From the NCBI GenBank assembly GCA_000934665.2, contig JYFJ02004132.1, positions 1-34,700 on the forward strand: a stretch of 34,700 nucleotides of DNA, in the 5' to 3' direction. The position numbers and the translations under genes are program-made. Below are positions 3,721-28,511 of this stretch, piece after piece. The DNA is from Catajapyx aquilonaris. Taxonomy: Eukaryota. The first letter of the stretch is position 1. The number at the start of each line of letters is the position of its first letter. The notes beneath the pieces are model-generated. The model was given only the letters and a program-made list of their open reading frames with translations. It was not told where the DNA came from and did no database searches.

Positions 3721-4094
3721 TGGCGGTATAACTATGCAAATGTGTTCCATTAACGTCACTCCGTTTTTAGTGATTTCTATCGGGTACGCTCAGGTTCAAA
3801 ATGTGCTAGCCATTAGATTGTACTCGATCGGTTCACTTATGGGTGCACGTGTTGTAATGAACTAATGGTAGACACTCGTAAAAATTAATAAAAACACTCA
3901 TACTGAATACCTGTGCGTTATTGTACGCGTAATTTCGTCCACCTTCTGCAGTGTTTACATAATGCAGCAATGATAGCAACGCTCTGTAACAATATGAATT
4001 TGTTTCATTATTGTCATATTACATTGTTAAAGCGTGGTTGTCTCGGTGAAATAGATGATCTATCCAGGATTTAACGGATTACTGGCCCCAAATA

Positions 4095-4723
4095 CACTAA
4101 ACCCCTGTTGTTGGACACCCCTACATGTTGGACACCCCTCAATGTCGGACATTTTTTCAGTAACCGTGGAAAAGGCTATCTATTTGTATGGGCACATTAG
4201 CTCTTAAGTTGGACACCCCTCTATCCTGGAAGTTGGACGCTTTTTGTCACCTAAGGTACACAGTGAATGGGATCAAAAATCTCCGTCCAGCCTGCTGATT
4301 TTTCAGGTCGTTACTGTGCGGTATGCCTTGGCCTCCCAACCAAAAGTGAAGGACACCATTTACGCAGCCCGAAAACTCATCGAAACTGAAATCATGGTGT
4401 CTATATACTCAGGCCAAACTGAAACAGTCCAGGGTGACTGATTTCTTTTGTAAAAAGTGAGCGTCCATATCAGTCGCAAAATCCTGTAATGTTGTATTGT
4501 ACTGTACTTTAGTCTATCTGTTCTCTACGGATAATACATTATTATACTGTACACTACGTACTGTAATAGTTTTTATGAAGGTGTTTTCTTCATGTTAAGG
4601 CATGCATGACCGTATACCCTCCACAGTACTGTATACTGTAATACATCTCTCTAAGTTAGACACCCCTCTATATCGGACATTTTTTGTGGAACCGTGAGTG
4701 TCCAACTTAGAGGGGTTTTACTG
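4095..4723. mobile_element. Tc1/mariner-superfamily (pogo/Tigger-like) non-autonomous element
   Basis: Left end TA|CACTAAACCCCTGTTGTTGGACAC; the right end reads TA|CAGTAAAACCCCTCTAAGTTGGACAC on the reverse strand. TA target-site duplication. Subterminal (TT/TC)GGACA(CCCCT) repeats at both ends. 629 bp, no transposase ORF. Confidence 0.8.
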
Positions 4724-7700
4724 TAATGAATTTCATCCGTTAAACCATTGGTATATAATCTAAGTGACGCAACGGGGGCCTAAATATTGGCGTGCTGTCG
4801 GATGGTGACAAGCTATTTATAACCTTCAGAAGCTGGGCTGGGAATTATGTGGAAATCGGTTGCTGCCGAGAGCATTAGCTTCCAAACAACCCTGTACTGT
4901 ACAGTCTATACAGTAACGACTTATCATCATGAGTGTTCGACTTGGGTGTAAACATCGAAAACAAAAACAACCTGTAGGTCTAATAAACCATTTAGTCAAC
5001 TCTATTTCTGTAGAATTTTCACTATGTGCTTACGTTAGAGAATGTGGCAAAAAACTACACGGCCGCGGCCGGGATAAAACTATAGTCAAGACTTGTCAAT
5101 TTAAAGCACCTGAACTTCCTTATGGTTCCCCGGAGGAAGAAGCCTTGAGAACAAGACGAGCAAGGTTAGTTCCAAAGGGACGGTAAACTCGTAAAAAAGA
5201 AAACAGCGCGTTATCCGCAGGAAATTGTTCATCAGCATCATCGCCTCGGAGCAGCAGATGGGAAAATTTTCTGGGAAATAATCATGCGTTTCCAGCATTG
5301 TGAAGGACAGGGAACATCAACGGCCTCGGTGTGTTCTACTTTCATGAACTTATGAAGGGAATAAGGGCAGGTCGTATGAACACAAATTAAGAAAATCTCC
5401 ATTTATGACTGGTTATGTAATTGTGAATTCTATTCGTAATTGCACATTTTCTCTCAGTTTTCATACAACCGGCCCCATAGTAGTTAAATATATTTATCAC
5501 ACTCTTACATTTTTAAGACGCGAGTAAGTTTTGGAGCCCAGTATAGTTCGAAAGTCCGATAACAAACAATTGTTCTCAATAACAGGTGCCCTTTCAACTA
5601 GCATTTGAATGGCGCAGGAACAGCTATTCATATCCAATCGGTACGTTTTAAAAAGAGAACATCCGACGGCTATGAGAAGGACAATAGTGCTGACGCTTGT
5701 CAGCAGGAAGGAAGGTCGGATGGTAAAAGACGTCAGTCGTTTCATGAATGACAAGTAGTCTGCCTGAGAAATGAGCCATCTACAGTTCAGTGGCTTAACT
5801 GCGATTCAGAGAAAGCGTACTACCCTCGCACATATTCAATTTGGTCGCAACAAGTGCGTATCACGTGTGAGACGTCTTCGTTACGAAAGCATGCATGAGT
5901 TGTCCTTGGCAATGACAGTGCGACGGAAGACAAGTGCACTTGCGGCGCACTAGGTAGTAAATACTACATTCATTCAATGTTATCGCCGTCATTTCGGTAT
6001 ACACAACGGTGCATCAATGAAATGTCCCTCTAAAATGAGGCGGTAAAAATGCAAGACTAATATTGCACTGTATATTAATGTTATGTTAAATAAGAGGAAT
6101 TAATATATTATTACCCAAATCATGCTGCAGGAGTCAACTGTCAACTCTTTATTATTGTTAAGAAGCGCCTCCAAGAATGGTGAAGAAAAGAAGTTAAGAT
6201 AACAATTGCTAGGAATTTATCATGTATTGAAACCTTTGAATCTATACTTCACTCTCCAAAGTCCAAATAAAAGGGATGGTTTTTGACGTTTCAGATAAAA
6301 TCTGTGCAATTTTTTGGCAAGTTTACGGACTACTTTTTAATTTCATATGAAAACAAAAAATTAATGCTGGTTAACTACTAGTGAGACCGAACAGTTTCAA
6401 CTGAAACCGATGCAACAATAAGAGGCAACGCATGTTAAACGTGGCGAAATATGGGAGCATGAAGAATAATCATTCACAATCAAATATTGTAAAAACCAAC
6501 CATATGCGATATTTTTATGGATATGTTTTGATTAGTGACCCCATTCACTATTTCTGATTTAATTGTAATTATTATAGAGGCCTTCAGGAGGTCTTGCCGT
6601 ACCCTTGTTGCTGGTCTGTGGCATACAGCGTAGGCGGATCGTGACTAAATTCCCCATGGTAAAAGATAAATGACTCTTGAAATGACTACAGGTCTGCGTC
6701 ATGAGTACTTTACCATGATTATTAGTAGACCTACTTGTATGATTCGAGGTTTTTAATATTGGACTGCTTGGCTTGATGACACGCCACTAATTCATGCAGC
6801 TGTATAAGTGGGTGATTCAGTGAATGCTTCCACATTAATATATTTAGCATTATTGTTAATGTTTCATTATTTCAATTTATAACGTTAACATCTATATCCT
6901 AATAATTACAGTGCTCAACGGCCATTGTCAAACAAATCACATCCATGCTCCAGGTGTGTTGTAACTATTCATTCTTAAATTTCGTGTAAGGTACCATTTC
7001 TATGGTTCACAGTTGTAACTCTTGACTAATGCATGCAAGACAATCTCGGTCAAAAGCAGTGTATTTGCGCTATTACCTTTAAACTATACATGAAGTTTCA
7101 ACAATTTCTGCCGAAAACCCCCCTCCAATGATTTATTTAATATTATCACAGCACCAATTTAAAGTGACTCACTGCATATCATATCAAGAGCTTCTAACTC
7201 TGTATGATATGCAATTGAGTCGCCTCCCCCTATATACACCATGCGTGACATGTGTGCAACACATGACGTCACGACGTTTAAAAAAAACTCCAGCTGGAAT
7301 AGGCATATCAATATGGTTGAATAATTCAGGAGAGGAAGTTTGTAGTGGTGGGTTGATAAGGGTCTGACCTACATTGTGGAGGGCACCAAAAAGTTGGCGT
7401 GATCTCCTTCACACACAACGATATAGTAGCCCTATGCCGGATACTACGAATAGAACACCACTATTTTCTACCCCCTTTCCATCCCACCCCACCATGACCA
7501 CTTTCCCCAAAAAGGCCCTTGTCCCAATTCTCGCAAATTTTCCGTCCTATACTTTAGGATGGGATATTGTGTTGAGGTGGGTCCTGGCTCTTGGTCTTCT
7601 GGGATGCTAGCCAATATTTTTGGGAGACGGGACTAAAACGGTGCCATTTTTTCTCTCACGTGAGATCATCGGACAGTGTTAGATACAGCCCGAGTAAAAG

Positions 7701-8803
7701 CTGGATTAATGCCATAAATACGGCAACAATCGTATTTCAACTCTATAAATACGTTCGCACATGTTGAGGATTTCCGGATTGTGGTGCAGTCATTTGCGAC
7801 ATATTTCGACAGAATTGTGGCACGCATATTGAGTTCACCGTAATGTCACGCTAAGTGTAAGCCCCCACGCTAGTCAATAACGTTACACCAAGTTTCGCAA
7901 CTGTCGAAATCCAATATCGCGGGTACTTGACCGCCGACGTTGCGGGATCCCCGAACTATCAGAAAAATAACCACAGCGGAGTCTGCGCTGTGATGCGGAT
8001 GCTGCGACCTATGGCGAAAGGTCAGAAAAATAATAAATACCCTACGCAACTATACAAGTGATGCAAACTGCCTTGCATTATAATCGCCCATGATTAATTT
8101 TAGTAGCGCCACTTAATACAGTACTAGGTAAGGGTAATAAATTGAACATAACTCTGGCATTAAGACGGAACCAGTAAATTCTAATGGTTACACATTATTA
8201 AATGAGCAATTAATTTGAACCCAACAAGCAAGCCTCTTTTATGGCCTTTCAACTTATTGACCCCCCCCCCCTTCCCCTGCAATAAATAAATCTGCATCAA
8301 TGTACATTCCAACCCACTAATTTTCCCCTATTGATGCATATCAGGACTATGTCACCCGCGTCGCAATATTAGTTATGATACATCCATACGAAACCTGAGC
8401 TCTAGTCATCCCCTAGGCTTTCACTATTCACCGCAATATGTTCGCAACCACTCATAGCACGCACCCCCACCTTGCACTATTGTGTCCTCATTGAATCAAC
8501 CTGATAGTGCCGACCTTGGATTAAACAGCGATGATTCATACTACCCTCCCCCCCCCCTCCCCCACATGAAACTACGTCACCCCAACAGAGTCGCGCTGAT
8601 TGTTAATAACAATTCCGCGTGTATTATATGCAGTGGGTACGTTGTCGTCCTTGGGGTGGGCAAGGTCCCCCATTCACCTTGAAAATGAATGACCCGTCCC
8701 ATTCGCACCGTGCTGCCAGCAGACGCCAACTAGCGTCCTCCACTCGCATCTGCCCCGATATGAGTCATCGCCCATCGCGGTAGCTGCTGTCTGTTTGCCG
8801 CTT

Positions 8804-8966
8804 ATGCCAGCCCAGCCAGCGCACATTCGTGGCTTGGAGTCCGGAGCGCGTGGTTCGGATTCAGAGCTGCTCCATATTACTTGTGTGGACTGTACAGTGT
8901 TGGAGGAAACAGCTGTACTGGCGGTGGATTTCTGCATTGGCACGACGGTTCGGCATGATTATTCTG
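8804..8966 (+). CDS. DUSP10: Putative first coding exon of DUSP10/MKP5-like gene (N-terminal extension MPAQPAHIRGLESG...VRHDYS/G)
   Basis: ATG at 8804 is the first in-frame ATG after an in-frame TGA at 8690. The frame is open to a consensus donor TCTG|GTAAGT at 8966/8967. Its 163 nt (phase 1) match the phase of the acceptor at 11389. I recognise no homology, so it could be a 5'UTR exon instead. Confidence 0.6.
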
Positions 8967-9987
8967 GTAAGTGGAGGTGTTTGAAGGTGTCTGGAGTGTG
9001 TGATTTACCGCAATATATTGTTGGATATTGTCAAATTCATGTATATTCAAGCAGGCACATTTTATTTCCAAGCTGACATTTTTACAGATAGGGAAGATTG
9101 TAAATAAAATTTAAATGGACAGTCAATATGTAATTATATCGTGCAATCTTACTATTGGGCTTGTAGTGAGCAGGTAAAAATGTATTGGCTTCCGCCTGGA
9201 GCAGTCGATATCATAGTGACAACGTGTGTACATGGTAAAGTGCAATATTTATGACCTGGGGCTTCGATTGTTGTCCTCGGTACAATGCTGCACCTTACGT
9301 GTAAGTAAACAAAGTAGTATTATCTGGAAGATAGGTTATCAGGCCATTTTTTTCATCCAAAGGTGATATATACACCTTATGAGTCATAGCTGGCGTGCAT
9401 CCAAGTCTTTTACTGTATATTACTTAAAATAATCCCAAGTAAAAAAAATTTTGCCGCTTGCTAACCGAAGGTTGAAAGACGGTAGGTTTACAGTAACTAG
9501 CGCAACGTTTGAGTCATCCGACAAGGCCATAATAATGTAATATTGTTGAAACTGATGGGTCAGCAGAGCAAACAGGAAATACGTTAACTAGAATGTAACG
9601 CATGATCTCCACTTGTAGATTCGCAACTGGATCCCGGGCCCGACTCCCACGTCATATTTGCGAGGATCCGGACGCGAAATAGTTTTCGTTTGTTTGTGTC
9701 GAGTGTGCTCTCACGAGTCATAGGTTAAGTCAGCGGCAGTTCCCAAAACAGTGATATCACTTTTTTTGCCCCTTTATTCCCGAACCTGTTTCAAAATTCA
9801 GTCACCCCTGCCGGCCATGATTCACGGTGGTTTCGCAACCCACGTTTCTAAATCGAGGATTAATCAGACAACATTTGCATCAGGGTGACTAAAGCTATTG
9901 TAGGAGTTGGACTGGGGGTGGNGGGTGAAAAATGAAAAGTGACAAAGCGATAGTATGAACGATACCGATTATTACATATGTTTTTTT

Positions 9988-10007
9988 TCTCTCTCTCTCT
10001 CTCTCTC
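9988..10007. repeat. (TC)n microsatellite
   Basis: About 10 TC units after a T run in intron 1. Confidence 0.85.
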
Positions 10008-11388
10008 ATCTTCTACTGGTCACTTGTCTGATAAGGAGATGTGAGACGTTGAATCATCATTGGGCTTGGGTCAACTTCGCCCAAGATCAATGGCCGGTTT
10101 GTGTCGGCACGTGATCACAGATCCGAAGGGACTTTTCGTAGGCCTGAGCTCGGTCACGTAATCCTCGAGTGTCTTTACGCAATAGGCTTTTTAGGTGCTT
10201 CGAAGAGGATGCGTCACGGATATTTCGCTCTTGAGTCAAAAAGTAACCCGGGCAAATTCTTCGCGGACTTTCTGAATCATCCGGACAGATGTGGGCTCGG
10301 GAACACCTTATAAGTGGGTTTGGGCAAACCCCGGGGCATTCCATCAGGGCGTGCTCCGTTCGGATTATTAGTGTGACGGGTCACTGTAATTATTATAGCC
10401 GGCTATAATGGATGGCCCTATCGCGGGGGATTGTTCCGTGTCGACCGGTCACTTGTCAAATTAGGGCTGATAATGTGCAAAAAAAATAACATGGTCACTA
10501 TCCTGTAAAATGACTTTGAGACATGAGTAGTACGAGCTGAAATGAGTTTGTGGAATTAATGCTGATAAGTTGTACATTGTACCCCCAAGCAGTGGAAGTG
10601 AACTGTAATGCGATCCGATTTGTTAAAAAAATTAATGGCGAAAGTCTGCGTCAGACGATACGGCTCCCATGGAATATGACTCCAGAACATGGGACGTCCT
10701 AGGCTGACACGAACCGTAGAAAAATAATCACCTTGATTTACGCCAGCCCATATGAACAGCGTTTATTGTCTTACCGTCCCGAAAATAGACATTTATGCTT
10801 ACGTCGGTATCTGTGCTAGCACGTGACCCCTGCCTTACTCACGTTTCTAATTCTGATTTGGATGCTGGGGAGTCTTTGAGGAGGGCAACACACTGAGATG
10901 GGGGAGTTGGAAAGGCGTTTTTCCTAATTTTGGCCCTGGGGCTGTTCCTTTCTGAGCCAGCTGGCGAGGAATTTCTTTTTGCCCCCTCTCTCCACCTACT
11001 GGATATACCATACAAAGCTGAGGGTTCCTGAGGAACCCTTCCACTAGGTAGCAAGGGATATACGTGTTTGGCTGGTTGCCCTCCTGGAGTCAACAGCCCA
11101 CCTCGTGTGAAGCTGCCTGCTTTTACTCCTAGTTTAAAACGTGACTCATGGCCAGATTATGAGGTCCCTAGGCGCGACTACATGGGCAGGGCTGCACTTA
11201 TCTCGACTTTTGTACTTGTCAAAATTCACTCAGGTAGGAAGTTTGAATTATCCAACGAGAATGTCACATTGCAAAGTAATCCTCCTTAGAGACAAGTCTA
11301 GCCTGATCCCCCCCTGATAATGCAGCTGCATACCAATGAATGGCGTGCCATATTGGCAACTCACCATGTATTTATAATCTGTCTGCAG

Positions 11389-12108
11389 GTCTGCTGAAGA
11401 AGCCACCTCGTCCACGCAAGTTCCGGAAACTACGGATGATGTCTTGGGAAATCGCATTCCCCCTCCCTCCCCCTCCTCCTTCCCCTACTACCATGTTGAA
11501 TGATCGAAATAAGCGTGATCGACTTCGGTTAGCCCTAAGTCGGAGCCTGAGTGAACCTGGAGAGGACATGATTGTGACATCCCCAACAATGGCGACAGCT
11601 CCTTCTTCGGGGCTTATGACGCCCGTTGTGGGTCAGGGTTCAGTCCCTCACAAGAAGTTCCGCGTGGAAGCTGTGAGCCTTCCAGCCAGCCCTTGCTCGG
11701 AGAGTTCAACTCTTCAGCGTGCCCTCACCCTCAAGAGAGTGCGCAGCATAGGACCGGAGATGCTGGCCAAGAAGCTCCGGAGAAGCGGACTGAAGCAAAA
11801 TAATCCCGGATTCCTGCTGGTGGATTGTCGCACCTTTATTGCCTACAATATGAACCATATCAGGGGTGCCATTAATGTCAACTGTTCCGATCGGTTTAAC
11901 CGCAAGAGACTGCAGCAGGGGAAGGCTTCGTTGTCGGACCTGGCTACCACCAAGGAGGGCAAGGACATGCTGAAGAAGAGATGCTACAAGGAAGTCATCG
12001 TGTACGATGACAATACGTTAGACTTGGAGAGACTGCCGCTCAGCCATCCTCTTTACCTGGTCCTCAGTACCCTCACTGAAGACAACCGGGAACCATTCTT
12101 CCTCTTAG
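11389..12108 (+). CDS. DUSP10: DUSP10/MKP5-like exon 2: Pro/Ser-rich N-terminus plus most of the rhodanese (Cdc25-homology) MAPK-binding domain
   Basis: Acceptor TCTGCAG|GT at 11388/11389 and donor TTAG|GTAAGT at 12108/12109. The translation contains LVDCRTFIAYNMNHIRGAINVNCSDRFNRKRLQQGK...EGKD...KEVIVYDDNT...HPLYLVL...EP. This closely parallels vertebrate DUSP10 as I recall it (IIDCRPFMEYNKSHIQGAVHINCADKISRRRLQQGK...EGKD...KEIIVYDENT). Confidence 0.93.
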
Positions 12109-15100
12109 GTAAGTTACATGTCCTTATTCTGTTGTAATTACTGACTCAGTACCATGTAACCTGCAAGTCATTCTAGTGTAGGCTACACCTGAATCGCTAG
12201 TATCCGTTCTTTATTTATACACCTTGTATCGACCGATAGGCACGTTCACCTGAACGCATTAATGGCACGGACCTCATAAAAATTCTAACACGCAGGTAGG
12301 AAACGGTTCGATATTTTCTACCCAGTGAAGGACCGAAGTAGCGAGCATTCCACAAAAATGACGAAAGCTTTCAGGCATTCCCCCCTCCCGGACATATTTG
12401 GTACTGTCATGAATGTAAATCTGAGCATTATGATTCACTTTCGTTGAGAAACCAAGATTCCTTGAACCCCACATGTTTGGCAAGAATGTTACCCGCGGGA
12501 TGGGGTGCACGTGGAAGGAAAGGATTCAATGGCCGGTTATCTTCGGAGAAAATGATGACCCTCGCCGTCTGCTCCCTTAAGTCTCAAGGATAATGTCTCG
12601 TCACCTGAGACGCGCCCGTAACCATTATCTCTAGTCTGAGGCTGCTGTGCGAGTATCATGTTCATATCACTGACTAAGAATTTTTTTAGTATGGATTTGC
12701 ATATGCCGTTTGTTCATTATTCAAGAATTTTTGTTAAACTTTTTTGAGAAAATTCAAACTGGTTAGACTGGCCCGACAACTTGCTGAGGAAATGAACGCA
12801 TCAGCGTGACATGCATCAACTTTTCCAACACAAACAATGCATAACATGAGTGAGCAGCGAACAATAAACTCGATTTAAGATATAAGTGCAATTGCGGGAT
12901 TTCGACTTAGCTAATGAATAACTTGCACTTTCTATAGATAAGGCTGCATCTGCAACATACCTGTACCGACGGTTGCATAGTTTCATGGATACCTGAAGGT
13001 CAAATGCAATCGGTGACCTCAGACTTTGCCACTGTTCTTTTGGCACACCCTGTACACGCCCGTTCTGGATTCTTCCAACCCAATTTGTTTCGCAATATAA
13101 TGTTAGCATGCATACGTGATTCACACACGCGAACACTTCGCGTAATATCCGGAAATGTCCTAATCATTTGTTGAAGCAAAGAATAGAACAGGAAACAAAA
13201 AAATTGTCCCCATTGATGAAAAGAACCAGCATTAACGTCAAACATCAGAAGACTCATGAACGACAAGCCGGAACAGATCAAACAGTAATCTTCAAACATG
13301 AGTGACGTCCGAATATTTTTCCGGGTGGTCATCCGAATTTTTTTGTGCCCTCCATATACACTTATATCCTTAGTTAATATTGACATTTCTTGCCGGAGGT
13401 TCAGGGTCTTTTGCACACGCTCGACTCTCTGTGTGGCATGTTGTCAATTGAACATGGTTAACCCTTTTACTCAGTCAGTTGCGAGGATTCGAGTGACGTC
13501 AGTGCAATTTTTAAAAGGCGGCGCGTTTTTTTTTTTTTTACTTTCCTAATTTTATTTTTTTATTTTTCGGAGCCAATTTGCATCCGTCCCAAAACACCCT
13601 ACACTTGGCATGGAAAATTACTAGAGAGGGGGTCACGCCTTGCTTCCTGGCAACGAATGGGTGACTAAGCAGTTGCACGTTACAATCCTTCTCATGTGAA
13701 GCTAAATGGCACACGGACACTTTAGTCCTGGCAGATAAAGACCACTAGTAGAGGCGGCCTGGCATACGTCAGTGATATTTTTCAGCCTTGCTAAGGACGA
13801 TGCCGAGAATGTACCAACCAGCTGGTGCTTACATCACCGTAGACATTTTACATGCACGTTTTTTGTGCGTAAATATGCGCAGTAACAGGGAAGTCAAAGC
13901 AGTTATCGCAAAAAAATACGTATCATGGAAAAGGCTTATGTATAGTAAACAGTCGTGACACTCGCCAGTTAATGTAAAGAATTCCGAGTGGCGTAAAACT
14001 AGGCTCTAGATCAAGCTTCTGAATTATAAGCTAATTCTTGGGGACGTTCCAATATGTTTTTTGAAAGGTTCAGAATGCCGGATCGGTATGCATGTCACTT
14101 CAGTGGATTTCACTTTAATATAGAATGTAGCGGATACAATTTCAGAATACTACAGTCAATATGCTATACCGCTATACACATACCGAGTAGGCATATAAAT
14201 TCCTTCAGTTTTCAAATGGAATCCATATGCAAATTCGGGATTGGAGGGTAATGATGCAGCATAATAATGAGCCCATGTTCCCAAGCCCTTACATGCCTCT
14301 CAAGAAAGTAGCTCCCATTATCATGAGGAAACCCAACTGGGTAACATATCAATTCGTCCTTCTTGTGGTTGCCCAGGTCGAAGTAAAAGCAGGAAGTCGA
14401 TTGCAAATACAGGAAACGAGCAAACGTTTTCTCCAGCGTGCGAATTTCCTCTCGTGGGCCGCCCTATTGGACGTATTCCTGCACACGTGGACAAATTTGG
14501 GCATGGACAAACCACAGTCGCCCCTGACCTCAACTAAACCAGGGGTTGAAGACCAGTCCCCTGGGCTGCACGATGCCTTTGCGATCTTATCTGGCTGACA
14601 GTGGTACCCTCGCGTGACGTCACCAAAAAATCTCAGCACAGATTGATATACATGCCGGGGAATGCGAAAAAGAAAAGAAAAAAAAAAGTTGTAAGGACTC
14701 CTACAAGGCTGCAGTTGCCATGTTTGGAAGATTCAACCTTGGTTTAGGAAGTGATCGCGAATGACGCGATTAGTCCGACGTTCGCCAATATATTCTTGTG
14801 CAGTATTCCAAAACTTCCGCTTAATGATGCCAATATGTTCACTATGAGATCAGTATGATTATATGACGCCATTTTGACCCTACAACCGAGATTTGGACCG
14901 CATATAAAGATTCCACTTGAGTGTCCCTCTTCTTTGGGGGTATTAAATCGACGCAATTCGGTTCTTCTCTGAACCAGCAGACAAAGAAATGGTTGGTTGT
15001 AAAGGAACCCTGATGGATAACGGTCCCTTTTGCCTCAACTCAACAGAATGGTCCTGGGAGAGAGGAAAGAGGGAGAGGGGTGGTGGTGAAGGAGGAGCAG

Positions 15101-18100
15101 ATGGAATTCCAGGGTGGGGAACCTGGTTGTAAACTCAAGACTCTTCGGAAGACAAGGGCCTGTTGGACCGGACCAGACGCTAGTAGATGACCTTCTGGGC
15201 CGACCTACACAAGGCTGCCCACTTTGGTTTACTAGCGAGATATTTTGCTGGTGCACGTACAGTACAGCAATTGCACCGTGCTGTAACCCTGATTCCATCG
15301 CGTGTATATGGAAAAACAATGCAAGGATGACTCATACGCGGACAATCTTATGTGCCAAGACCTTGTTTTCGTAGGCTGTGCCCCTAGGTTTCTGAGAAAA
15401 TATGCCAGGATTCGAGTGAAAATGAGAGTGCAGTCGGGTCAGTGACATTCCTGGTTGTCGCGTCTATGTACGGCTTGGCAGGACATGTTCCCTTCTTTTT
15501 TCGAAATACGTGTAGGAGCTTAGGGTTGGTCTGAGTGGGATTTGTTGTTGACCTAATGAGTCGCCGCGAGTAAACAACAACACTCACCAGTCGACTAGTC
15601 GAGACAGATTTTGCCATTACGAAATGCTGGGATGGTCCGACACAAACCGGTACGTTCGGGGGTAAATTGGTATTAATCCTACTGCTATTTTTATAGAGCC
15701 GGCTCGTTAGTCATGGCTATTATTTCGTACGATGCTTTTGAGCCGCGGTCGATTCTTCGAAAATAAGTCCCGCTATGGAATTAGTATCCTAACTTATAGA
15801 CACGCGGACAATCCACCTGTGAGTCATGGAATTCCCCCCCCCCCTCCTAACCTTCGAGGTCTCTTGACGTCGTTGAACTGCACAAAAAAGGACGCAGGCG
15901 CTGAGACGCATTGGTGTACTGTATACATGTGACGTACTTCTGGAAGGATTTCCCAAATGCGGTCGCGTTGCTGTCACTCAACGCAATTTTATGAGCATAA
16001 AAGACGCAATGTCACAACTCTCGTGGAACTTGACGCTCTCATTGACAAAAATATGACACATATGCTTAAATGGAATGATCTCACCACAGTATTTGATGAA
16101 TGGACCAGTGTTCTTCGAAATCCAACAAACTGTTTGCACAAATGCTGGAAGGCAGATCGATCCAAGTCCAATAACGACTTACTTCCCTCCCCAATCTGTT
16201 AGCTTCTCGGGCAAACATTTTCCACCCCGGATGAAAAGTTTGCAAATGTTTTTAGTAATCAGTGCCTTTTTCTCCCTATTTGCCCTGTTGGCGGGAAAAT
16301 GTTGCCACTTGGGAGCCAATCCCTCCCTCCTCCCCATCCCCTCTTTTTCGTCCATCCATCCCTTTTATTTCCCCCATCATATCCCTGATTCATGCCTGGT
16401 CCCCTAACTGGGTGATTCAAAGGTCCCACCCACCCCCCCCCACCCTCTCCATCCCTCTTTTTACTAAGCCCACAAACGCGCATAAAATAATTGCGCCCCA
16501 TTGGGCTAATTAGAATGCAATGAGTTGTCACTTCATTACGTCACACCTATATACTCCAGCGTGGATCTAATCACCAGGTTGTCAGGGGAATAAGTTAATT
16601 GACCATGTCATAGTGTTCGGGTAGGGTATGGGGGGGTGGCGAGCAATTTAAGTGGTTACAGGACATCCTCCGGGGATTTTTTGGGGACACCCTTCATGTG
16701 CGGGTGGGGAGACGGGGTCTTCCGTAAATTTTAATTAAGCCGTCCAGGATCTTCATCGAGGGGCAGTTACAAGAGTTTTGCGAGTCCTGAGGGAGTCGTG
16801 GGTTACTGGAGATGTGATTCAATGGGTCGTGTAATGAAGCGCTCGACTGAGCCAGCCAATCGGGAGAGGATTTACTGGTTTGTTGCCGACACCTGTAGCT
16901 TGGTTTGCATAAGCCACAGGATGAGAGTTTGCATCGTTGGTATGTGCTATGATCGAGGACTTTTAAATTCCAGAACATTTGGGGCTATTGTGTAATTACT
17001 ATCGGGAGGGATTAGATATCCGTACCTATAAGGCGCAGAATATCGCTGATAGAACTGTTCATATCATATCACTCGTAATTCATGCGTTATACAGCAGTAT
17101 GACTATCGTTGTTTGCTTCAAGTTGATGAATTATCGTCGCGCCTCATGCCGCGATGTATTGGAATAATCTTGCTCATTTCCTGCAAAAGCATCAGAACTG
17201 ATAGGTGAGTCAAAGAAGAAAAAAAATCCTCACTGTTGATAAATCATAATCAGAAGAAGCCAAGGGAAACCACACTGACATGTCCTCGGCTCAAAACAAT
17301 CCCGGTCGGTTAAAAACAACTGCGGAAACGTTTTTGGCCGCAGCTTTGAAATGTAAATAGTGTCGCACGGTGGCATGCTACAAACAGAAATGGCGGGATT
17401 GACAGGCATGTGTGTCCCTTTATACACCGATTGTCGCCTGAGTGAGTCAAGCTTATTTCCTGGGCTACCAAACGGATGTCCCTTTCCGCTTCCTCTTTTC
17501 CACGTTGGCCAAAGGCCCCTCTCCCAGCAGCACAGATGCGTTTCGGTTACGTAAACTTGGGGGACCATTCAGCTCTGTCCGACCCATGAATGGAGGTATG
17601 GCTCGGTATAGAACATGTTTCCTAACGTAAAGTGGCCTTGACGCAAAATGTTACATGGGATGGGGAGAATTCGTGGCCACGCCTATATGCTCTTCGTCTG
17701 TGCTGACCCATCCAATCGCCACTCACTATCGTATCCCCTGTCACATTCGAGGACGAACAACACGAACAGTCGAACGTATACTGTACGTGAGAGTTGTAGT
17801 GTGAGTACGGTGATCAAATATTACTACGGTACATACAATTAATCGTTGGGAAACAGAGGATAACCCCGTCGTATATGACCTGTAGTAGGTTATACTTCGT
17901 GCACCGAGAGCATTGTATTCCTATCACAACGCAAATACTCTGAAAATGGAGCTTCCGTCTCCTCCCATATAATAACCTATGGTAAAGCACGGTAGGTTCT
18001 CGTGTGTTCACGCACGTCGGTTTTTTTTCCATTCTGGAGGATGAGCCAAAATAAAGTATGACTTATCTCCAAGGTCGGAAATGTATTTTGCCATGACCGT

Positions 18101-18179
18101 CCATAATGAAGGTTCCGGATGAGATGCTCCGAGTTGACGTAGTCCCTAATTGGTGGACCTTATTTTCTTCCGATTATAG

Positions 18180-18542
18180 GTGGCCATAAAGAATTTTACC
18201 GTCAACATCGCGACCTCTGCGAGGACACCCTGATGTCCTCCCCTCGCTTAGGAATCAACACGAACCTGTCGTGTCCAGCCATGGACATTCCACAAATGGT
18301 GCCTATGGACATCGAGAGTCATCCAGCATCCCGAGTGCTCCCCTTCCTCTACGTGGGCAACGAAAGAGACGCATCGGACCTACAACAGCTGAAAGGTCTT
18401 GGCATCGGAAGTGTCCTGAACGTGACTGCGCACCTCCCGGGCTTCCATCAGAAGCATGGTATTCGTTACAAGCAGCTGCCGGCCGCCGACAATGGTCACC
18501 AGAACCTCAAGCAGTATTTCGAGGAAGCATTTGAATTCATTG
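18180..18542 (+). CDS. DUSP10: DUSP10/MKP5-like exon 3: end of the rhodanese domain and N-terminal half of the DSP catalytic domain
   Basis: Acceptor TTTTCTTCCGATTATAG|G at 18179/18180 restores LLG-GHKEFYRQHRDLCE. It continues with DIESHPASRVLPFLYVGNERDA...VLNVTAHLP...YKQLPAAD (general-acid Asp) NGHQNLKQYFEEAFEFI. Donor ATTG|GTGAGT at 18542/18543; 363 nt, phase 1/1. Confidence 0.95.
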
Positions 18543-21500
18543 GTGAGTCTCCTCTTGATATTAGGGTGTTACAACAATGGCTGTCACTCTCTTTACAAAT
18601 GAAATTTTTGGATGGCCCATGTTGGAACACCCTGTCTCTATACAACATGTATTACATTCAGTAACCGGTTTAATCCAGAATGATGACATCATAAACAGTT
18701 CGCTCTATGTGTGTGCTAATACGTGCATCGATGGTGGTGGGCAGGTTAGGGGAGGCATCTGCGATCGTGGTTATGAATATTCAGAAGCCCAGGCCACAAC
18801 CCCTCCAGCACCATACACACGCAGATCTCCCCCCCCCCCTCATATATTAAAAGGATATGGTCCCATTTTGTACTAAGTACAAAAGCAGGGCCTTCATTTC
18901 AGGCACGTACCCCTCCCCTCATGTTGGGTTGAGGGGCGCCTGCAAACTAGAGGAATTCATTAAACCGCGGTCATTGTTTTTTTAATCAACTAATTAACTG
19001 CATATCGACATTGGGGCCACATTGTTGCAAAACTAATCCATCAGTTTGATGTTGGGCCGGGCTCATCGTGTCTTGTTCCGGAAGGATTTTGCGGGCGAGC
19101 TCGGTTAATCACGAAAATCCGGAGTGCGTGAGGGACCAAATGGGGAGGACTTCCTTCACACCAGTGTCCCACAGCAGGCCAGTGTAGACTCACCCTGTTG
19201 TCTGGGATGGGGTAAATGACGCAAACCCCGGCTCTCCCGTGGGACTCCCCGAATTGTTGAATGCCGAGGGAGGGGTAGGGGGGAGGGCGAAATCTCTCCC
19301 TTGCCAGCCAATTACTTAATTCAATCCAGGCGATATCTTGTGGAGAGGGCGCACAAAGGAAACCGTATCAATTTGTGATCACCATAATTGGCTTTGGATT
19401 CAGGTTTCCCGGAGTGAGGGTGGGACAATTTGGGTTAGTTCGAGGATAAATGCTACCCATTTATCATGGCTGATTTATACAAATGGAGTCGAAATTTTTG
19501 CGATGAACTCACTTATTACGCATATTATCAGAACAAAGTGGCACGCAGACTGCATGGGGAAAGTAACACGCCTGGGTGTCTACACAAACCGCAGTCAGCA
19601 ATGATTCTCAGAAGAAACCCTGGGTGACTACAGGGAAAATTGACCATACGTACTTTCCGTCCTTCAGATAACGATAAGCAAAACGCTGTATAATATGTGA
19701 GGTGGCAGCCTGCAGCTGGTATGACTCATCACCAAAGCTGCACCATTTTTGTTGTCACTTACTGAGGGTTTCTGACGTCGAACGTACCCGATATAACTGT
19801 ATGTAAATATATACGAATTACATACCGGTATTGCAATAGTACTTACTGGTGTTTCGTCTGTAGATGAACGGAGCCACCTTCTGCTAAATATTCAGGTTCA
19901 TGTACCCGGATCTGTGTCTAGCCCGCTAGTCCAAACAGTTGACCATGGATACGCAATATTGTTGCGTACGGGGGGGCAACGCAGTTTTATCAAAAGAAGA
20001 CTCTATTGCGTGTCACACGGCCATTGGCCTTATCACGAAACCGAATGTAACCTCAGGGGTGTATTTAATTTTCTTCTCCCCTTTTTCACCTGTCTGTAAC
20101 TCTCCTTTTTGTGTTAGTTTTTTACTTTGGGGGAAAATCAGCCTCGCCATATGTTTCTTGATTCCGGACTAGACGATACGAGCGAGCAATCGAGTGATAA
20201 GCTTCGGTCGACATATGTCGTTTATATGGCCCACAGCTTAAGATCTCAGCAGGAGTTTAGACGACGCTGGTGACACACGTTTTAGCAACGTTTGTCGGTG
20301 GCGACAGGAAAGGGCTAATAAAGCCTCGTGTAATTTGAACCTTCAGTATTATAAAATAACGGTGGCAGCCTTTCCCCCTTGTACGACCCTTATGAATTAA
20401 CCATACCCGATATTCAATGCCCAAAAAACGGTAGGGGTGAAAAATGTGCAACGTACAGTACATGGAAAACGGCTCCCTTCTTGTTTTGAAAAGAGTGACC
20501 CCGAGTGGCATCTGGGTTCGACCTTGCCGAGGAACTCGATGCAAACATGACCGCCTTGCCTGCGGGGAGGTTAGTGGCCAAGGAGATAGGAAGGAATGTT
20601 CGGCCTCACTGCCTCTCGTATAGCAGCTTATTATCACCGGTTTTTTTTATTTTAAAAAAGGAAAATAGAAAACGTACACGTGCTCTGATTTGTATTGTGT
20701 TTCGAAAAAAAAAGGGTGTGCATAAAATAGCAGGAAGATAAACCCTTTCACCTGCCATTCACGCTCCGTTCTCGTTATGATGAATGCATAATTGACGATG
20801 TGTGCTGTGAGTCATGAAGTTGGCACACATTTTTACCGCGAATATTATCTACTCTTAAAAATTACTTTAAAAAAACACCAGGTATGATATTATGATATTA
20901 TGTCCTAAGTGAAGATGGGGTTATAACCGGATTTTCATATTGGCCAAACTTTTTTTAGTTATTTGTAACACCTGATCTGTACAACCTGAGAAAATAGTTA
21001 ACCATTTAAATCCCCAGCCATTTGCAATGTTAAATCGCCGCCAAATGTCATCCGGTTTGTGGTGCAAATACGCTAACGGCAAAGGATCAGCATTGGTGAG
21101 AAGCGAGGCCGCCTGAGTCAGCACTGGGGGAAGGCGGGGGAACATAGGGAGGAGAGGGGGGTTGAAAGCTGCCAGCTGCTGACTCACCTGCCCGCCGGTA
21201 AAGGTAGATCGAGTGGAGAAATGAGAAGGGGGGGAGGGAGGGAGGTTCAGATTGGCAAAACGTATGTCGGTTTCGAGCCTTTTGTTCTGTACACGTCTTT
21301 GTCACAAAGGGGAAGAAATTCCTTCAATAAATCGATTTCTGATCGTAACAAAAGGGACAGGTGTAATGAAAATTTTCGGCAGGTGTCTTATATGTTTTTT
21401 TTTTGCGTGTTGTTATGTTGGCCGGCCTTTTAAATCCGGAGGTTGTGAAAAGCAGGTGGCAGGAAAACGGTACTAACTCGGGTATGTTGTAAGCCCGCTT

Positions 21501-23904
21501 CAAAAAAAAACCTTGGATTCTTTTTTAAAACGCTGTCGTTACTATTACTTTTAAATTTAGAAAAGGGTGGGAGAAAGTTCAGGCCTTTTTGGTACACACA
21601 AACGATCCAATTTCGACCCAACCATTAAGGGTCAGCGCACCGTGAGTCACAATAAATCTGGACATTCTTCACGTGACGCAATTTCCAACCATCACACGTC
21701 CCACGCTGAATAAAAAAAAACACACAACTCATTCCTTACCTGGGAAAAAATAATGCCTGGAGCTAACTTGCCAAGAAAAATTCCCCTGTAGTTCATTACC
21801 TCATTGCTGATCTGTAAGCCCCATTCCGTGATCACCTCACGGCTGTACACTCAAAAATTCACCGAAACAGGTCACTCACTAACCTCCCGTGACGTAAAAA
21901 AAACTACGCAATTTTAGCTTTCAATCTTAAGTACTATGAGTCATTCAAGGGCGTCTTAGATACCCCCCCTCACTCACTCACCCCCTCTCAGTACCCTCCT
22001 TTATGTTGTAGGTACTTCATCCCCTTCCACTTTTCTGCGATGTATCGAAACTCGAGCTACGTCTTTTTAAAGGAATTCCCCTCTTAGACTTACCCTCTTT
22101 TGGGATGGGGGTCAGAACGTAAGGGAAGTTTTATAAGAGCTGTGAGTCACCTTTAGGGAGTCTGGGAAGATGAGAAGGGAGGCTTTTGCTTAGGGGAATG
22201 GTTATCTCGAGGTGAGGGTGGGGGCTGGAGAAAATGGGAGCACCTTTTTTTTTCTTCTTGCCAGGAAGTTGTAGGGGGAGAAGTCATCAGGGTTTTGGTT
22301 ACATATAGAAGGATGATTCAGTGATTCCTTCTCAACTGTGAAAAGCTAATTATCGAATATAGTCTGATTGAGGAAATGTTCTGGAAAACTGGCTTTATAG
22401 TTGGAGGGTTGCGGCATGTATTATTTGTGCCTCATTTTCCCGTTGGTAATTACAGTGTGTTGTAACTTACATTTTTTTTTTCCTCTCCGAATATATCCAG
22501 GTTTGATTCCCACCTGCTCAACCCAAGCTATTATAACAGTCAGTGGTCTGCAGTTATGCCCCGCCTGATTAGCCAGTCTAATCAAAAATGTCCAAACTAG
22601 CATGCAAGAAAGCGTGTGCCCATTACTTTGAAAGGCTTTGGGAACAATTTCTCTCATGTCGGGCATGAGACCTAGCTACCAAGTCTGCCGTTCACCTGGA
22701 AAGGGAGAGGTGGGAGAGGGAATGAAGGGGAAGGTAAAGGGGGGAGAGGCAAGGAGCGAAACGAAGATGACTCACACCGAAATTTTGCAAAGTTGGCCTC
22801 GGGACAAGAGGAGCATAAAATCACGAGTTCTGATCTCTACGCTTCTGCCTATCTGTTCGACCAACCGCTCTTCGAAATGTAAGAAAAGTCCTGACTAGAA
22901 AACCCACCTTATCCAGTTATTTAAACCACGACATTAGCTTCCGCGTTGTACCGCTTGTTTAGAAAGGGACCAACAACCTCTGGCAAGTAGATCTCAGTTG
23001 TCCTCCTTTTTCCCTCGACTCCATTCCAATCCGTGCACGTGTCTTCCATGGACGTGCACTTGTCATTTTAAATAAGGAACGAACAGCGCGACATTGAGAC
23101 TTCTTTATATTGCCGAATTTTTTTTTCAAGATAACCTTGGATTGCGCCACTTGCTCAAGGGAAACCCTCTGTATGATTCACCTACTGTTTTCATTAGGGA
23201 AATAGGAAAGGTGGTACACCTCCCCCCCCTTTCCTGCATGAGAAATTGGAACACATTGTTCCAACCCCACCACGGCTCATTTCACCTGCTTATTTTCTAC
23301 CCAAACAATGGCCAAACCTCAACCGATTTTTTTTTTAAACTAGAGAGTTGGAGGGGGGTAGGAAATGGAATGGGCACATCGTTGACAACGACTCGGGAAT
23401 CATAAAAAAAGGGATGTGACACGAGGGGAGACATATACTCTCAAGGGTGTGATTATGCTTCGTTATTAACCCCACTTCACTGATTCACCAACGCGGTTTC
23501 GTGGCAGAGAGCCAGAATAGCGACGAAGATGATGCAGTAGAGAAAAAAAAAGTTTTAAAAAACCACTCGAAAGATGCCGCTGGGGATTGGGGGCATCCCC
23601 GAGATTTTGCTAAATGGGGGATGACATACACAAACATTGCAAAAGAGTAATTCCCCTTCCATTTTTATGAAGATGTTCGCTTCCCACGAATTATATTTAT
23701 GTATTGCAACGCGTGAGATTAAAACGTGCAACAGCCTTCACCTAAGAAACTGGCACGTATGACGCACACATTACAGCAGGGTATATTGTGACCAGTACCG
23801 CAAATTTTATACATATGTTGTCATGGGCAGGTTCTGTCCTAAGTGTCATATAGTGCATGGCTATGACAAATGACTTCTAACCGCAAACTATTTGTCCTTC
23901 TCAG

Positions 23905-24212
23905 ATGACGCTCGCAAAAATGGCTGCAACGTTCTAGTCCACTGCCAAGCCGGTGTGTCCCGCTCTCCGACCATCGTCATCGCCTACATCATGAAGCACA
24001 AGCTGATGACCATGTTGGAAGCCTACAAGCTGGTCAAGAACCAGCGACCTATCATATCTCCGAACCTCAACTTCATGGGCCAACTTCTAGAGTTTGAACA
24101 AGGACTTCGGGCTGCCAAAAGTGAACCCGACTGCAAACCGTGTCACCAATGCTGTCATTGGACGCACCAACCAAAGGAAGAGGTCTCCTCCGGATGCAGT
24201 TGTAGCGTTTGA
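23905..24212 (+). CDS. DUSP10: DUSP10/MKP5-like exon 4 (terminal): catalytic P-loop and C-terminus
   Basis: Acceptor TTTGTCCTTCTCAG|AT at 23904/23905. Encodes [23 protein letters not shown]...[26 protein letters not shown], i.e. the HCxxGxxR signature (Cys codon 23943-23945) and the MKP AYxM and [11 protein letters not shown] motifs. Stop TGA at 24210-24212. Confidence 0.96.
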
Positions 24213-25956
24213 CCCTGACTTCAGCCCCGGTTATCTTAGAGACTTGACCAGTTCATGGATGAGAATGAACTATTTTTTTTGCGCTTGTTCAGCTGACTAC
24301 AGAAGTGCCTCAAAGCATGACGTGGTGCTTTTAAAACCTCTTTAGTTTTGAATATTTTTTTTCCATGCGTTTTCGAGAGGAGTCTGGCGGATGGAGGGAG
24401 GCATGACCTGCATTTTGTCAGACCCCCAAGTTCCTCCGACCAATAGGAACGGAGTTACTAGATGATGTGTATAAATCTCCGTTTAGGGCTCCTTCGAAAC
24501 CGCTTCAGAAGTCATGGCAATAAGGCCGGAAAATATCTTGTACCATTTAAATCTCACCACAGATATTAAGTTCAATCCTGACAACCTCATACGAGGTTTT
24601 AAAGCATCACGGCTATTGTATATATCAGGGGTGTGAATATATATTTTGTAACCGTTGAGGGTACACACCCCGGATGGAGATTTGAAGCTAGGTAGTGTGC
24701 ATTAAGTTTTAAAATCAAAATGCTGCCACGACAATTACAGGACTGTTGTCAAAAAAAATGCACCTTGTTTCTGTGAAACTATAAGTGTATACCTCTGACA
24801 ATATTTTGGAAACACATGGCTGAAGTCTTCCCCGTTCAGTAGCCACAAGTCGACTTGACATGTTTTAATTTTTCAACTGTAATGCACACTACAATGGTGT
24901 GCTGTCCACCCCTCCAGATTCACACCCTCCTTTTCCTTTACCCCCCACCCCTCTTATTCCAATTTTTTTTCTGCAAACGGGAATGGCGAAGGGAGAACTT
25001 TCTGTGTGACGTGTCCTTTCAAACGGTGGCGCTTCCGCGGCATATTGATATAAGGCCTTTTGTGCCCTGTCAATCCACGGAGGCCGCTCTCCCAGGCCGG
25101 GGTCATTTCCATAGCCCCTTTCCTCCCCCTACCCCACCCCTCACTATTCATCGGTGCATTAGTCACCAAGCCAGGTCCTTTTCATGAAGTCTAGGGCTAC
25201 CGAATTAGAACCGGCATTATCAGCCATATGTTCTCATCTACAACACAGTCATCACCCACCCCAACTGTACTTGGCCCCGAATTAAATCTGGATTGTATTC
25301 CAGCTGCATTTGGGCGATTGAACCGACATTATTGGTAATCAGGTTAAGCTGCTGCCACTTGTCACCTAAGCTATCCCTCCCCATTGGTCCAACCCTCTTG
25401 TTTGGTCAACAGAACAGAGTGACCTCACTTCGATTTCTGACCCCCTTCAGGTTTCATCTGTTCCATCCGATGACGGTCCCAGTATTAGCTCCTAAGGAGA
25501 ATGATTTACGAGCTCGGTTCGATATGCGTCTTTTGCTACCCCTAGCACACTCTTTGCCACGCCCCTCCCATTTTTTCAAATGAAAAAGTGATTTCATCTG
25601 CTCAGAGTCAACTAGGGTGGTTCAGCATTATTACTTTTTTTTGTCCTAAATATCTAGTCCATCACGTTAGTCATAAGAGCCAATTAAGTTTACTACATCT
25701 GTGATGATTGTAATTCAACACCTCAACTGCGAGAGTGTGATGTGTGTCGGCGATTTTTTAACGCCCATGTTCTATTTGTACAGTGCTTCACTTTTTAACC
25801 ATTGTAATATTAAGCCTCTATTTATATACTACTAAATCCTATTTGAAAAGAAAAAGGAACATCTATTTAAACAAATCACCTCGGAGTCACTATTGTCTTG
25901 TGTAACTGATCCAGTGACATGTTCAGAAGTGAATAAAAAATATCATGAATACAACA
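24213..25956 (+). other. Putative 3'UTR of the DUSP10-like gene
   Basis: Runs from the stop codon to the first AATAAA I found (25932). It has an AU-rich terminal block (TATTTGTA, TATTTATA, TATTTAAA at ~25770-25870). The end position is approximate. Confidence 0.6.
24767..24779 (+). promoter_or_regulatory. Constitutive decay element (CDE)-like stem-loop, Roquin-binding type
   Basis: GTTTC-TGT-GAAAC forms a 5-bp stem with a UGU triloop and matches the UUCYRYGAA CDE consensus. It lies in the putative 3'UTR. Confidence 0.55.
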
Positions 25957-25966
25957 CTGTTGTTTT
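25932..25966 (+). terminator. Polyadenylation signal with downstream GU/U-rich element
   Basis: AATAAA at 25932-25937, CA dinucleotides ~15-20 nt downstream, then TGTTGTTTT. Confidence 0.65.
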
Positions 25967-28511
25967 CATCCTATACCTTCTGGGAGGGTCATATGTAGGT
26001 ATTATTCCAGCCACAAACCCTGTTTAAAAAAAAAAATGCAATTCGTCGAAACAACCTTCTCAAACTCTCCTGTCACGCAGACAACATTCCCTCACAGGGC
26101 TATAATTGGGAGTTGGTGTTATTTTCCGACAAGCCACGCCTCTCTTCTCTCTCTCCCCCTCATCAGACTCATCTTTGGGATGTTGAGGGAGATGACTCAG
26201 TTGACCTGAAGATGAGTGTTGACATTGATCTTGGGTTGGGGTGCGGTCCAGCTCTGGCAGGGAGGGGACTGGAAGATGAGTTCGAAGTGCGGGGGAGATA
26301 GATAGTTACCACGTGTTCCATCTTCGAATTGGGGTGGGAAGGTATGGAGGGGAGGGCATTGATGAACCATTCACACGTAATGGGTCTGCCAACCAGCAAC
26401 ATTGTACTAAAAATCAATTAAGTGAAATTGAGAGATGTATGTTGCATGTATTTTGAAGAATGAGGATATAGGCTACGACCGTCGCCATACTAACGAGTCT
26501 TTCGTTACACCCCCATAATGATAAGCCTGCGGGGCTACAAATTGAGGGCTGAGAAGGAAAATTGTGGCTCTCCGGGATGCCGATAAGCGTCAATAGACAC
26601 CCAGTCAGCCTCAGTTGTGTGACTCACATCCAGAGGGATAAAACCAAAACACTATATACTATATCCCCCAAACGTGTCTCCCCGGTTTTGCCTGTGTGTA
26701 CAGTCACTGAGTCAACCAAAGTAACTGACAATGTGTGAGGATATTTATTCAGTAATGGTTTCCTTTCTAATGAGGCGATGCTTGTCTGAATCACGCGGCT
26801 ATTAGGACGCTCGGGGGTGTATGGGGAGAGGTGGAGGGAAAGGGGGGAGGGAAACAAGAGATGGGGAAGACATCATCACATTGATTTCTGGGTCTCTCAC
26901 CCCCCCCCCCCTCCTTTTCCTACACCCCCACCGATTGCAAATAGCCTATTGATCCCTCCAATTCAAAAATTAAGCTCCGGAGCTTGAATCTGGGATCCCT
27001 TTATCGCTCTTGTCCTTTCCTATTTTTTCCAACTTATTCCGATGCAGGCCACCCAACAGGAAAAGAGAAGACAGTCTCATCTGATAGCCATGACATTTCC
27101 ATAACAACACGGTCCCATATCGGCCACTTGTAAGCCGCAGACCAGTGCCTATGCAGATTGGGCTGGCTTTTGTTGCGTAATTAATGAGACGAGGGGTGGG
27201 ATTCAATCAAGCTATGGCCAGCTTAGCATCAACCAGTGAGTCTACAATACTTCAGACTTTTTTTTAAAAGAAAGGTCAAACGTCGTTCAGATCATTGTCA
27301 TTCTGATGATGTAGACTAGTACTTGCTTATGTCAAAAATGTCATGATAATCCTGGAAGGTTGGCTGAGCGCAGCACAAGAGAGGTCAACAGAATTCCATA
27401 CAGTGCAGGATGCACTGAAGGTCGTTACCTTGTTAATGAGTTTAGCTTGCTTCAGGTGAGATGTCATGTAGTCAGCAAGATGGTTCTATTTCGCAGAATT
27501 AAAATTTAGAAGTTTTACCCCGTATCGTATAGTGCACATAGGGATTTTCCGCAAGTGACATTACTCATAGATTCACGACTCATCGCTGCCACAACATCAG
27601 ATAGCACTGCAATGTCACGCCACGTAATAGGACGTCTTTTAGCACGATTTCTACAAACTTTTCTTGTCAATAGTCTACTAATAGGAGGGTTCTATATTGT
27701 TCATATACCCATATGAGACAATACGTGCATGCACAGGGTGTCAATAAAGTATAAAATGATCATTACGTCATCTTTTATAGCACAAATAGCTCTTCATCTC
27801 ATTAAGTGGCTAGAATAGGAGGCACTAATTGCAAACCCAGTCCACCATCCCTTCTAAAAGCATGGAATGCGCTCCAAGGCACACCTGTTACACAAAAGGC
27901 CAAATCCGCATGGCGTCATCCACTCAATCAGAACCGCACAGTCGCACACACATGACCTCACCACATATGACACACACGGCGTTCTAAAAGTGAGAAAACT
28001 GGTTCCAAGTGAGAGTTCGTTGTGCTGCACATACTGTATACGCTGGTGGGCATGTCCATTGACGCCACGTCTCGAAAATTGATGGTCCAACGGAGGAGTA
28101 TAATAAAAAACAAGAGTGGTGACCATCCTTGCAAGTCACGCAGTGTGAGCTCATAGACGAACATAGAGACCCACGTGGGTTACCCTAGGTTAATACCCTC
28201 GCTACAATAACACTGCACGTTCATTTCGTAATTTAGAACTTTCATTTAGAGAGGCTAAAAATGGCCACATACTAGGCCTGCAGGTAGAATTCACGATTTT
28301 GATGCCCGACTGTGCTGTTAGTGAATAAAGACCGTCATTTTGCCGCCAATGTTCCTGTAAGACGCAGGGTACATACTTATAAAAAGTAGATCCGGTCTAT
28401 AAAATAATAATGTACGATTATATCAGTCTTGTATAATTCCTTTTGAAATGCATCGCTTCGTGAGAGTTTTGTTGTAGAAAAATGAAATAAATTCCCAGCC
28501 TGAAGGTATTC

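Follow-up and report, generated by a model that had tools for sequence, protein, structure and literature searches.

In flies, the brake that puckered (puc) places on JNK signalling is textbook knowledge, and the fly Puc protein is not known to carry the N-terminal MAPK-binding domain. Drosophila puc has been described as an immediate-early JNK target encoding a feedback phosphatase in four exons, with intronic enhancers that are densest in intron 3 (PMC8623796), and AP-1 motifs are present in its regulatory region (PMC4610234). DUSP10/MKP-5 has been tabulated as the puckered orthologue (PMC6264519). For mammalian DUSP10/MKP5, MAPK-induced expression has been proposed as negative feedback, and the portion of that source covering the promoter names other factors there, with no intronic AP-1 array mentioned (PMC6480380). 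At wg/Wnt6, three AP-1 sites suffice for the wound enhancer BRV-B, and deleting the sites abolishes wound activation (PMC4786413); this damage-responsive enhancer type is JNK-dependent and is paired with a neighbouring element for maturity-dependent silencing. Here we analyze the AP-1 heptamer TGA(C/G)TCA (TGASTCA) in a 34,700-nucleotide stretch of the Catajapyx aquilonaris genome (contig JYFJ02004132.1 of assembly GCA_000934665.2, positions 1 to 34,700; hereafter the window), which harbors a DUSP10-type gene with a ninefold excess of this heptamer in and next to its introns.

The locus resembles Drosophila puc in encoding an orthologous JNK-class phosphatase in four exons, with candidate regulatory content concentrated in the introns, richest in intron 3 and including AP-1 motifs. 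It differs in that the fly feedback on JNK has been demonstrated genetically, whereas the Catajapyx locus is known from sequence alone, and in that its protein keeps the N-terminal MAPK-binding domain that fly Puc lacks. For puc, a Jun/CREB match has been placed in one conserved element, and the available part of that account gives no locus-wide AP-1 count (PMC8623796). Like BRV-B, the locus places multiple AP-1 consensus sites in or close to a target gene of JNK, here a putative one, but in place of one compact element with three sites there are 18 sequence matches spread over 14 kb. It also shares with homotypic site clusters an excess of one motif outside coding sequence at a gene that feeds back on its pathway, much as Ci/Gli sites are dense at Hedgehog targets, yet those clusters, as far as the excerpted descriptions go, form one enhancer of ~1 kb, while the excess here is a motif density extending across three introns (PMC4621482, PMC4692483). 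With mammalian DUSP10/MKP5 it has in common the domain layout and the best structural matches. Our literature search, which did not extend to the supplements of PMC4610234 (Table S1) and PMC8623796, returned no locus-wide AP-1 density count for DUSP10 or puc, and the accessible portion of a preprint (bioRxiv 10.1101/772533) contained nothing on puc sites. The cis-regulatory basis of the fly JNK-puckered brake is thinly covered in the literature, and the brake is untested in most arthropods.

The window contains 26 TGASTCA heptamers. The dinucleotide-shuffled control proposed in a first-pass annotation of this DNA gave 4.61 heptamers on average and 13 at most, with none of 100 shuffles reaching 26. 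Our recount agrees with that annotation in finding 18 exact heptamers in 8761-22774, eight of them in 19722-22774, and the eight outside this region are exactly where it had listed them (3181, 3440, 7165, 26193, 26620, 26708, 30707 and 32003). Its rough expectation of ~2 per 14 kb is matched by the genome-wide count: 40,445 copies in the species' own genome (G000, 285.6 Mb) correspond to 1.98 per 14,014 bp. The excess, which had been put at about tenfold, therefore holds at a corrected size of about ninefold (18 versus 1.98, 9.1-fold, Poisson P = 5e-12). The sites had also been described as lying across the introns, and this is true of 17 of the 18 (four, five and eight in introns 1, 2 and 3, respectively), while the one at 8761 precedes the start of the spliced contig by 38 bp. 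None of the four DUSP10 exons contains a site, and the density per kb is 0.8-1.7 in the introns, 0.34 upstream and 0.48 downstream. Under a second-order Markov model of the region itself, only the A/T homopolymer exceeds TGASTCA among heptamers, and TGASTCA ranks first of 64 pseudo-palindromes of like build at the locus.

To place these counts within the genome, we used 140 random 10-kb tiles, a length-weighted draw over contigs 1-6007 with interpolated lengths that mixes introns, exons and intergenic DNA and is thus broader than an intron-only control. The 195 sites in these tiles amount to 1.39 per tile on average (variance 1.35), and the counts are unrelated to GC content (r = −0.03). The first-pass annotation had named a similar density in random introns of this genome as a finding that would speak against its proposal; the random tiles have at most five sites and none reaches six, versus 6, 8 and 10 in the window's three consecutive 10-kb tiles and 13 in its best 10 kb. 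The eight sites of intron 3 fall within 3053 bp, a span in which no random tile has more than four. With the dispersion parameter set to its lower 95% bound, finding 18 sites in 14 kb has P = 1e-7, equivalent to 0.003 windows per genome, and the best 14-kb windows in 20 simulated random genomes contain 10-12 sites. We also searched for the dense tail of the distribution by requiring three sites with gaps of ≤300 bp. This gave 290 matches, the first 50 of which represent 32 loci; 15 were fetched, omitting C1, three tandem arrays, six repeat-like loci and seven beyond C149. Tiles centred on these 15 loci have 3-8 sites, while the same rule applied at the DUSP10 locus gives 10 and 13. Among other phosphatase genes of the genome, nine DUSP-like loci (16 tiles) have 0-5 sites per tile, with five in the tile of a DUSP16-like gene and three and two in those of a DUSP7-like gene. 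The locus is extreme in its genome, alongside other dense loci.

The gene itself had been named a DUSP10-type JNK/p38 phosphatase gene in the first-pass annotation, and the identification is borne out. Human DUSP10 is the top PDB match of all three coding exons tested (E = 5e-30, 2e-23 and 8e-27), the named homologues are mostly arthropod DUSP10, with insect and crustacean proteins closest, and in a tree of 70 columns the protein groups in the DUSP10 clade with support of 93/85, at a node that is not starred. Separate DUSP7-like and DUSP16-like genes exist in the same genome. Contigs of sequencing run X5 span 8799 to 25950 and skip three GT-AG introns (8967-11388, 12109-18179 and 18543-23904), so we read X5, a run of unrecorded kind, as RNA-derived. 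The AP-1 heptamer at 8761-8767 (ATGAGTCAT) lies just 5′ of the contig start, in the promoter or 5′ untranslated region. Exon 1 (8799-8966, plus strand as are all parts of the gene) begins where the contig ends, not at a mapped start, and an in-frame ATG at 8804 would give a protein of 517 amino acids. Intron 1 has sites at 9380, 9510, 10232 and 11142. Exon 2 (11389-12108) encodes the rhodanese-like MAPK-binding domain (human DUSP10 3tg1_B, E = 5e-30, versus 1e-11 for DUSP16), within which the basic kinase-interaction motif NRKRLQQGK aligns to human SRRRLQQGK. Intron 2 includes sites at 12142, 15328, 15820, 17206 and 17443 and two palindromes of the cAMP response element (CRE) at 13494 and 14615. 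Exon 3 (18180-18542; E = 2e-23) encodes the first half of the phosphatase domain, and intron 3 has sites at 19722, 20808, 21114, 21180, 21643, 21937, 22143 and 22768. Exon 4 (23905-25950) carries the catalytic motif, the stop at 24212 and a 3′ untranslated region to ~25950, with AATAAA near 25932. The general-acid Asp loop (LPAAD, human LPATD) aligns, and the HCxxGxSR dual-specificity catalytic motif is intact with no internal stop. This sequence evidence identifies a spliced arthropod orthologue of DUSP10/puckered that encodes an intact DUSP10-type MAPK phosphatase, which by orthology would dephosphorylate JNK and p38 (in line with the sections consulted of PMC6264519 and PMC6480380). Two smaller features accompany the transcript: a six-codon out-of-frame reading frame across the first splice junction (8955-8966 + 11389-11397), with one ATG on either side (8804 and 11436), and an unspliced 486-base X5 contig at 14417-14902 in intron 2 that includes the CRE at 14615 and is either a pre-mRNA piece or a separate RNA.

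For a comparison beyond this genome, a metagenome scan with a DUSP10 alignment yielded 198 relatives, the best 80 of which were kept. These comprise 17 genomic DUSP10-like fragments that share an intron position with the Catajapyx gene, 22 spliced or intronless DUSP10-like records, seven uncertain loci, 32 other DUSP loci and two unused (L237, L277). The foreign fragments are short, and most of the control DUSP loci are probably non-animal. With their last exon, 14 of the 17 fragments group with named DUSP10s (support 93/85, 70 columns); L217, L236, L242 and L271, without that exon, were assigned by BLAST, and there are no near-duplicates among the 17. Together they contain 33 sites versus 13.0 expected in 78 kb, more than the largest of 100 shuffles (24), and the heptamer again ranks first of 64; without L245 the count is 27 versus 11.3. 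The excess is on the intron side (21 versus 4.7, or 4.5-fold with the sets sorted post hoc) and in the first 1.5 kb downstream (6 versus 2.4), with 3 versus 3.9 beyond that. There is no excess in the 22 spliced or intronless records (9 versus 9.4) or in the 32 other DUSP loci (30 versus 33.4), and all 24 DUSP10-like loci including the uncertain ones have 43 versus 16.9. Eleven of the 17 are above expectation, and the excess keeps P = 0.0008 if a general twofold baseline is assumed. On the intron side, the four loci closest to springtail proteins (tested for L259) have 4 versus 0.71, L244 and L245 together 4 versus 0.19, L236 3 versus 0.39, L248 4 versus 0.66, five loci without an assigned taxon 4 versus 1.16, L242 1 versus 0.69 and L271 0 versus 0.18. 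None of the non-coding DNA at the foreign DUSP10 loci can be aligned to the window, so density is what they have in common and not position. On the site conservation that the first-pass annotation had proposed to check in relatives, this comparison gives a post hoc density excess without alignable non-coding positions. These counts are suggestive of a parallel AP-1 excess in the DUSP10-like introns of several other animals. In the uncertain set, seven AP-1 sites fall within the 2.6 kb that precede the last exon of L249 (2637-5280), a DUSP10-like gene with a different intron position.

We consider it probable (roughly 0.7) that the introns carry a selected homotypic field of AP-1 sites, likely with several candidate AP-1-dependent enhancers, that serves a JNK-AP-1-phosphatase feedback as in Drosophila puckered. 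The proposed chain starts from observed features: a spliced gene for an intact DUSP10-type phosphatase, non-coding, single-copy sites that are far over genome background and biased to RTGASTCAY, and a 4.5-fold, post hoc excess at unalignable positions in the DUSP10-like introns of several other animals. An excess without alignable positions points to site turnover under selection on site number. By analogy with Drosophila, JNK would phosphorylate Jun/Fos, AP-1 would act on these sites and DUSP10 would be induced; the phosphatase would then dephosphorylate JNK and p38, ending the signal. The first-pass annotation had proposed a distributed, stress- and wound-responsive enhancer domain that hard-wires such a loop. 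This proposal is supported in part, by the gene identity, the genome-relative excess, the at least 16 of 18 sites outside repeats, the flank bias and the parallel excess elsewhere; the terms ‘hard-wires’ and ‘wound-responsive’ carry over what was already known of the Drosophila puckered loop. Such a number of sites would probably answer to several tissues and stimuli (morphogenesis, stress and wounds), beyond wounding alone.

Several observations weigh against this feedback reading. Much of the puc intronic enhancer activity persists in hep mutants and is thus JNK-independent (PMC8623796, in part), and AP-1 heptamers in genomes are mostly inactive, according to the part considered of PMC5793781. 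An A adjoining the core, looked for at the 18 sites, is not enriched (10/18 versus 95/195, P = 0.37). Other dense loci occur in the genome (eight sites at C115, six at C4524), and the true tail is therefore heavier than Poisson; a second Jun-like gene, identified by eye, has only two sites in 10 kb. As for the foreign loci, the sets were sorted after the counts had been seen and the expectation is each locus's own dinucleotide composition, with no genome baseline, 6 of the 17 are at or below expectation, and two insect-like fragments show no excess (1 versus 0.69).

The sites could be functional but read mainly by other bZIP dimers or inputs (ATF3/ATF2-Jun, CNC-Maf, or ERK- or p38-driven Fos), in which case the field would be a general stress and growth-factor input instead of a JNK feedback loop. 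JUN, FOS, ATF and MAF dimers all bind AP-1 sites, as stated in the portion used of PMC5793781, overexpression of mosquito MKP5 reduced phosphorylation of ERK and p38 as well (PMC6264519, in part), and the JNK-independent puc expression noted above (PMC8623796) points the same way. A panel of 25 side motifs, with P values uncorrected over the patterns, shows raised counts at the locus for TGCTGASTCA (2 versus 0.06), TGAWTCA (9 versus 2.8) and TGACGYAA (5 versus 0.94), in addition to the two CRE palindromes. We take the TGCTGASTCA extension to resemble antioxidant response and Maf recognition elements (ARE/MARE); its two pattern matches are 66 bp apart at 21114-21186. However, the plain heptamer predominates, and within the panel neither the CRE (P = 0.16) nor a loose ARE pattern (P = 0.38) is raised, nor are NF-kB, EGR, SRF and heat-shock motifs. 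We regard this alternative as unlikely, though worth keeping in view. It is considerably less probable still that just a few sites work and the rest are neutral or serve a neighbouring gene off the contig. The contig does end at both sides of the window, and the inactivity of most AP-1 heptamers in genomes (PMC5793781, in part) would favour it, but a neutral process yields ~2 sites and not 18, and the density peaks within the gene, with the same gradient in the foreign loci. Flanks distinguish active from inactive AP-1 sites in the same partially consulted source (PMC5793781). Of the 18 locus sites, 11 have RTGASTCAY flanks, compared with 12,010 of 40,445 genome-wide (30%, P = 0.006). Such R/Y flanks are the preferred AP-1 context.

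The excess might instead be a by-product of old, decayed repeats carrying TGASTCA. The genome does contain an old dispersed repeat in which GCGGACAA follows TGASTCA (310 matches versus 3 for the control, with 81 exact copies of one 19-mer; copies include L043:9216, L062:4850 and L185-L194), and 22 of 269 sampled sites elsewhere, about 8% and within repeats, share at least 17 of 20 flank bases with another site. At the locus, site 15328 with its flank (15327-15359, plus strand) resembles one repeat copy at 30 of 34 columns, a score that 2 of 193 random sites attain, and the match at 19722 is weaker, at a level reached in 5 of 193, so that one or two of the 18 sites may be old repeat relics. Against a wider contribution, we found no tandem array in the AP-1-rich region and no BLAST match within 8761-22774 on comparing the window with 1.78 Mb of sampled genome; the flanks of the 18 sites agree with other sites at ≤13 of 20 bases. 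DNA-run depth, a test that speaks to recent repeats only, is flat at 22-34 over 7501-27500, while repeats at 1-1842 and 3992-4912 give 158-16,964. Without both suspects, 16 sites are left (P = 4e-10). We therefore give the repeat explanation very little credence. At least 16 of the 18 sites are non-repeat and the region is single-copy, with no repeat-borne motif array. The AP-1 heptamer excess is real, AP-1-specific and non-coding, and composition and repeats do not account for it. We had also considered GCGGACAA as a co-motif of AP-1 sites and dropped it, as it marks the dispersed repeat and its exact core was set by the search pattern itself.

The proposed selected AP-1 field with JNK feedback extends a known circuit and reveals no new mechanism. 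A non-repeat ninefold excess that recurs in orthologous introns provides exact coordinates for reporters and suggests an old loop that is maintained through the number of its sites. More tentatively, and with slightly less than even confidence, a high AP-1 count in DUSP10/puckered introns could be conserved across arthropods, possibly across all animals, with each single site turning over. If so, this locus would be among its genome's densest AP-1 fields, a many-site dose sensor scaling phosphatase output to JNK activity, and the puckered loop would be ancestral cis-wiring, readable from sequence. The counts also suggest AP-1 density as a flag for direct JNK targets in unannotated genomes, as Jun scores too.

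Among 17 bZIP-gene tiles, Jun has seven sites (10 in 30 kb), two others have six and the remaining 14 have 0-2; one six-site tile contains two weakly AP-1-like bZIP exons in tandem (E = 0.03). Upstream of the Jun open frame, three AP-1 sites lie within 170 bp (L017:4647-4810, G000:C466; 7 per 10-kb tile). Jun autoregulation is well known, and the sites at its locus fit such a loop. We did not identify a clear Fos gene among the 18 bZIP matches in the genome. L172 (G000:C2258:5001-15000) is a tandem-duplicated divergent bZIP gene, Fos/ATF3-like by eye with a weak Jun/GCN4 match, and has three and two AP-1 sites at 500-850 bp 5′ of the respective bZIP exons. Loci with MMP domains have seven sites in 17.5 kb, with 3.5 kb covered per locus. 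The densest other tile observed, L205 (G000:C115:29301-39300), has eight heptamers in 10 kb. Genome-wide site triples (290 versus ~70 expected) were not counted in favour of functional clustering, since the reversed control clusters too (100 versus 11) and many triples are tandem repeats. Two tandem arrays (G000:C14:40609-40955 and C132:63400-63559) have TGAGTCA within the unit and so form natural AP-1 site multimers.

Elsewhere in the window, three AP-1 sites (26193, 26620 and 26708; 26193-26714) fall within 770 bp past the transcript end. The single-copy segment 3181-3640, 5 kb upstream of DUSP10, combines two AP-1 sites with a CRE palindrome at 3627 and a number of ACGTCA half-sites, and is a possible distal enhancer. 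No substitution is listed in 7501-27500 in four runs (X1-X3 and X5, from two samples), a very low apparent polymorphism, although contigs drop rare variants and X1-X3 derive from a single sample, possibly the source. Positions 1-526 include inverted repeat arms of 179 nucleotides, 97% complementary, in a very high-copy element resembling a miniature inverted-repeat transposable element.

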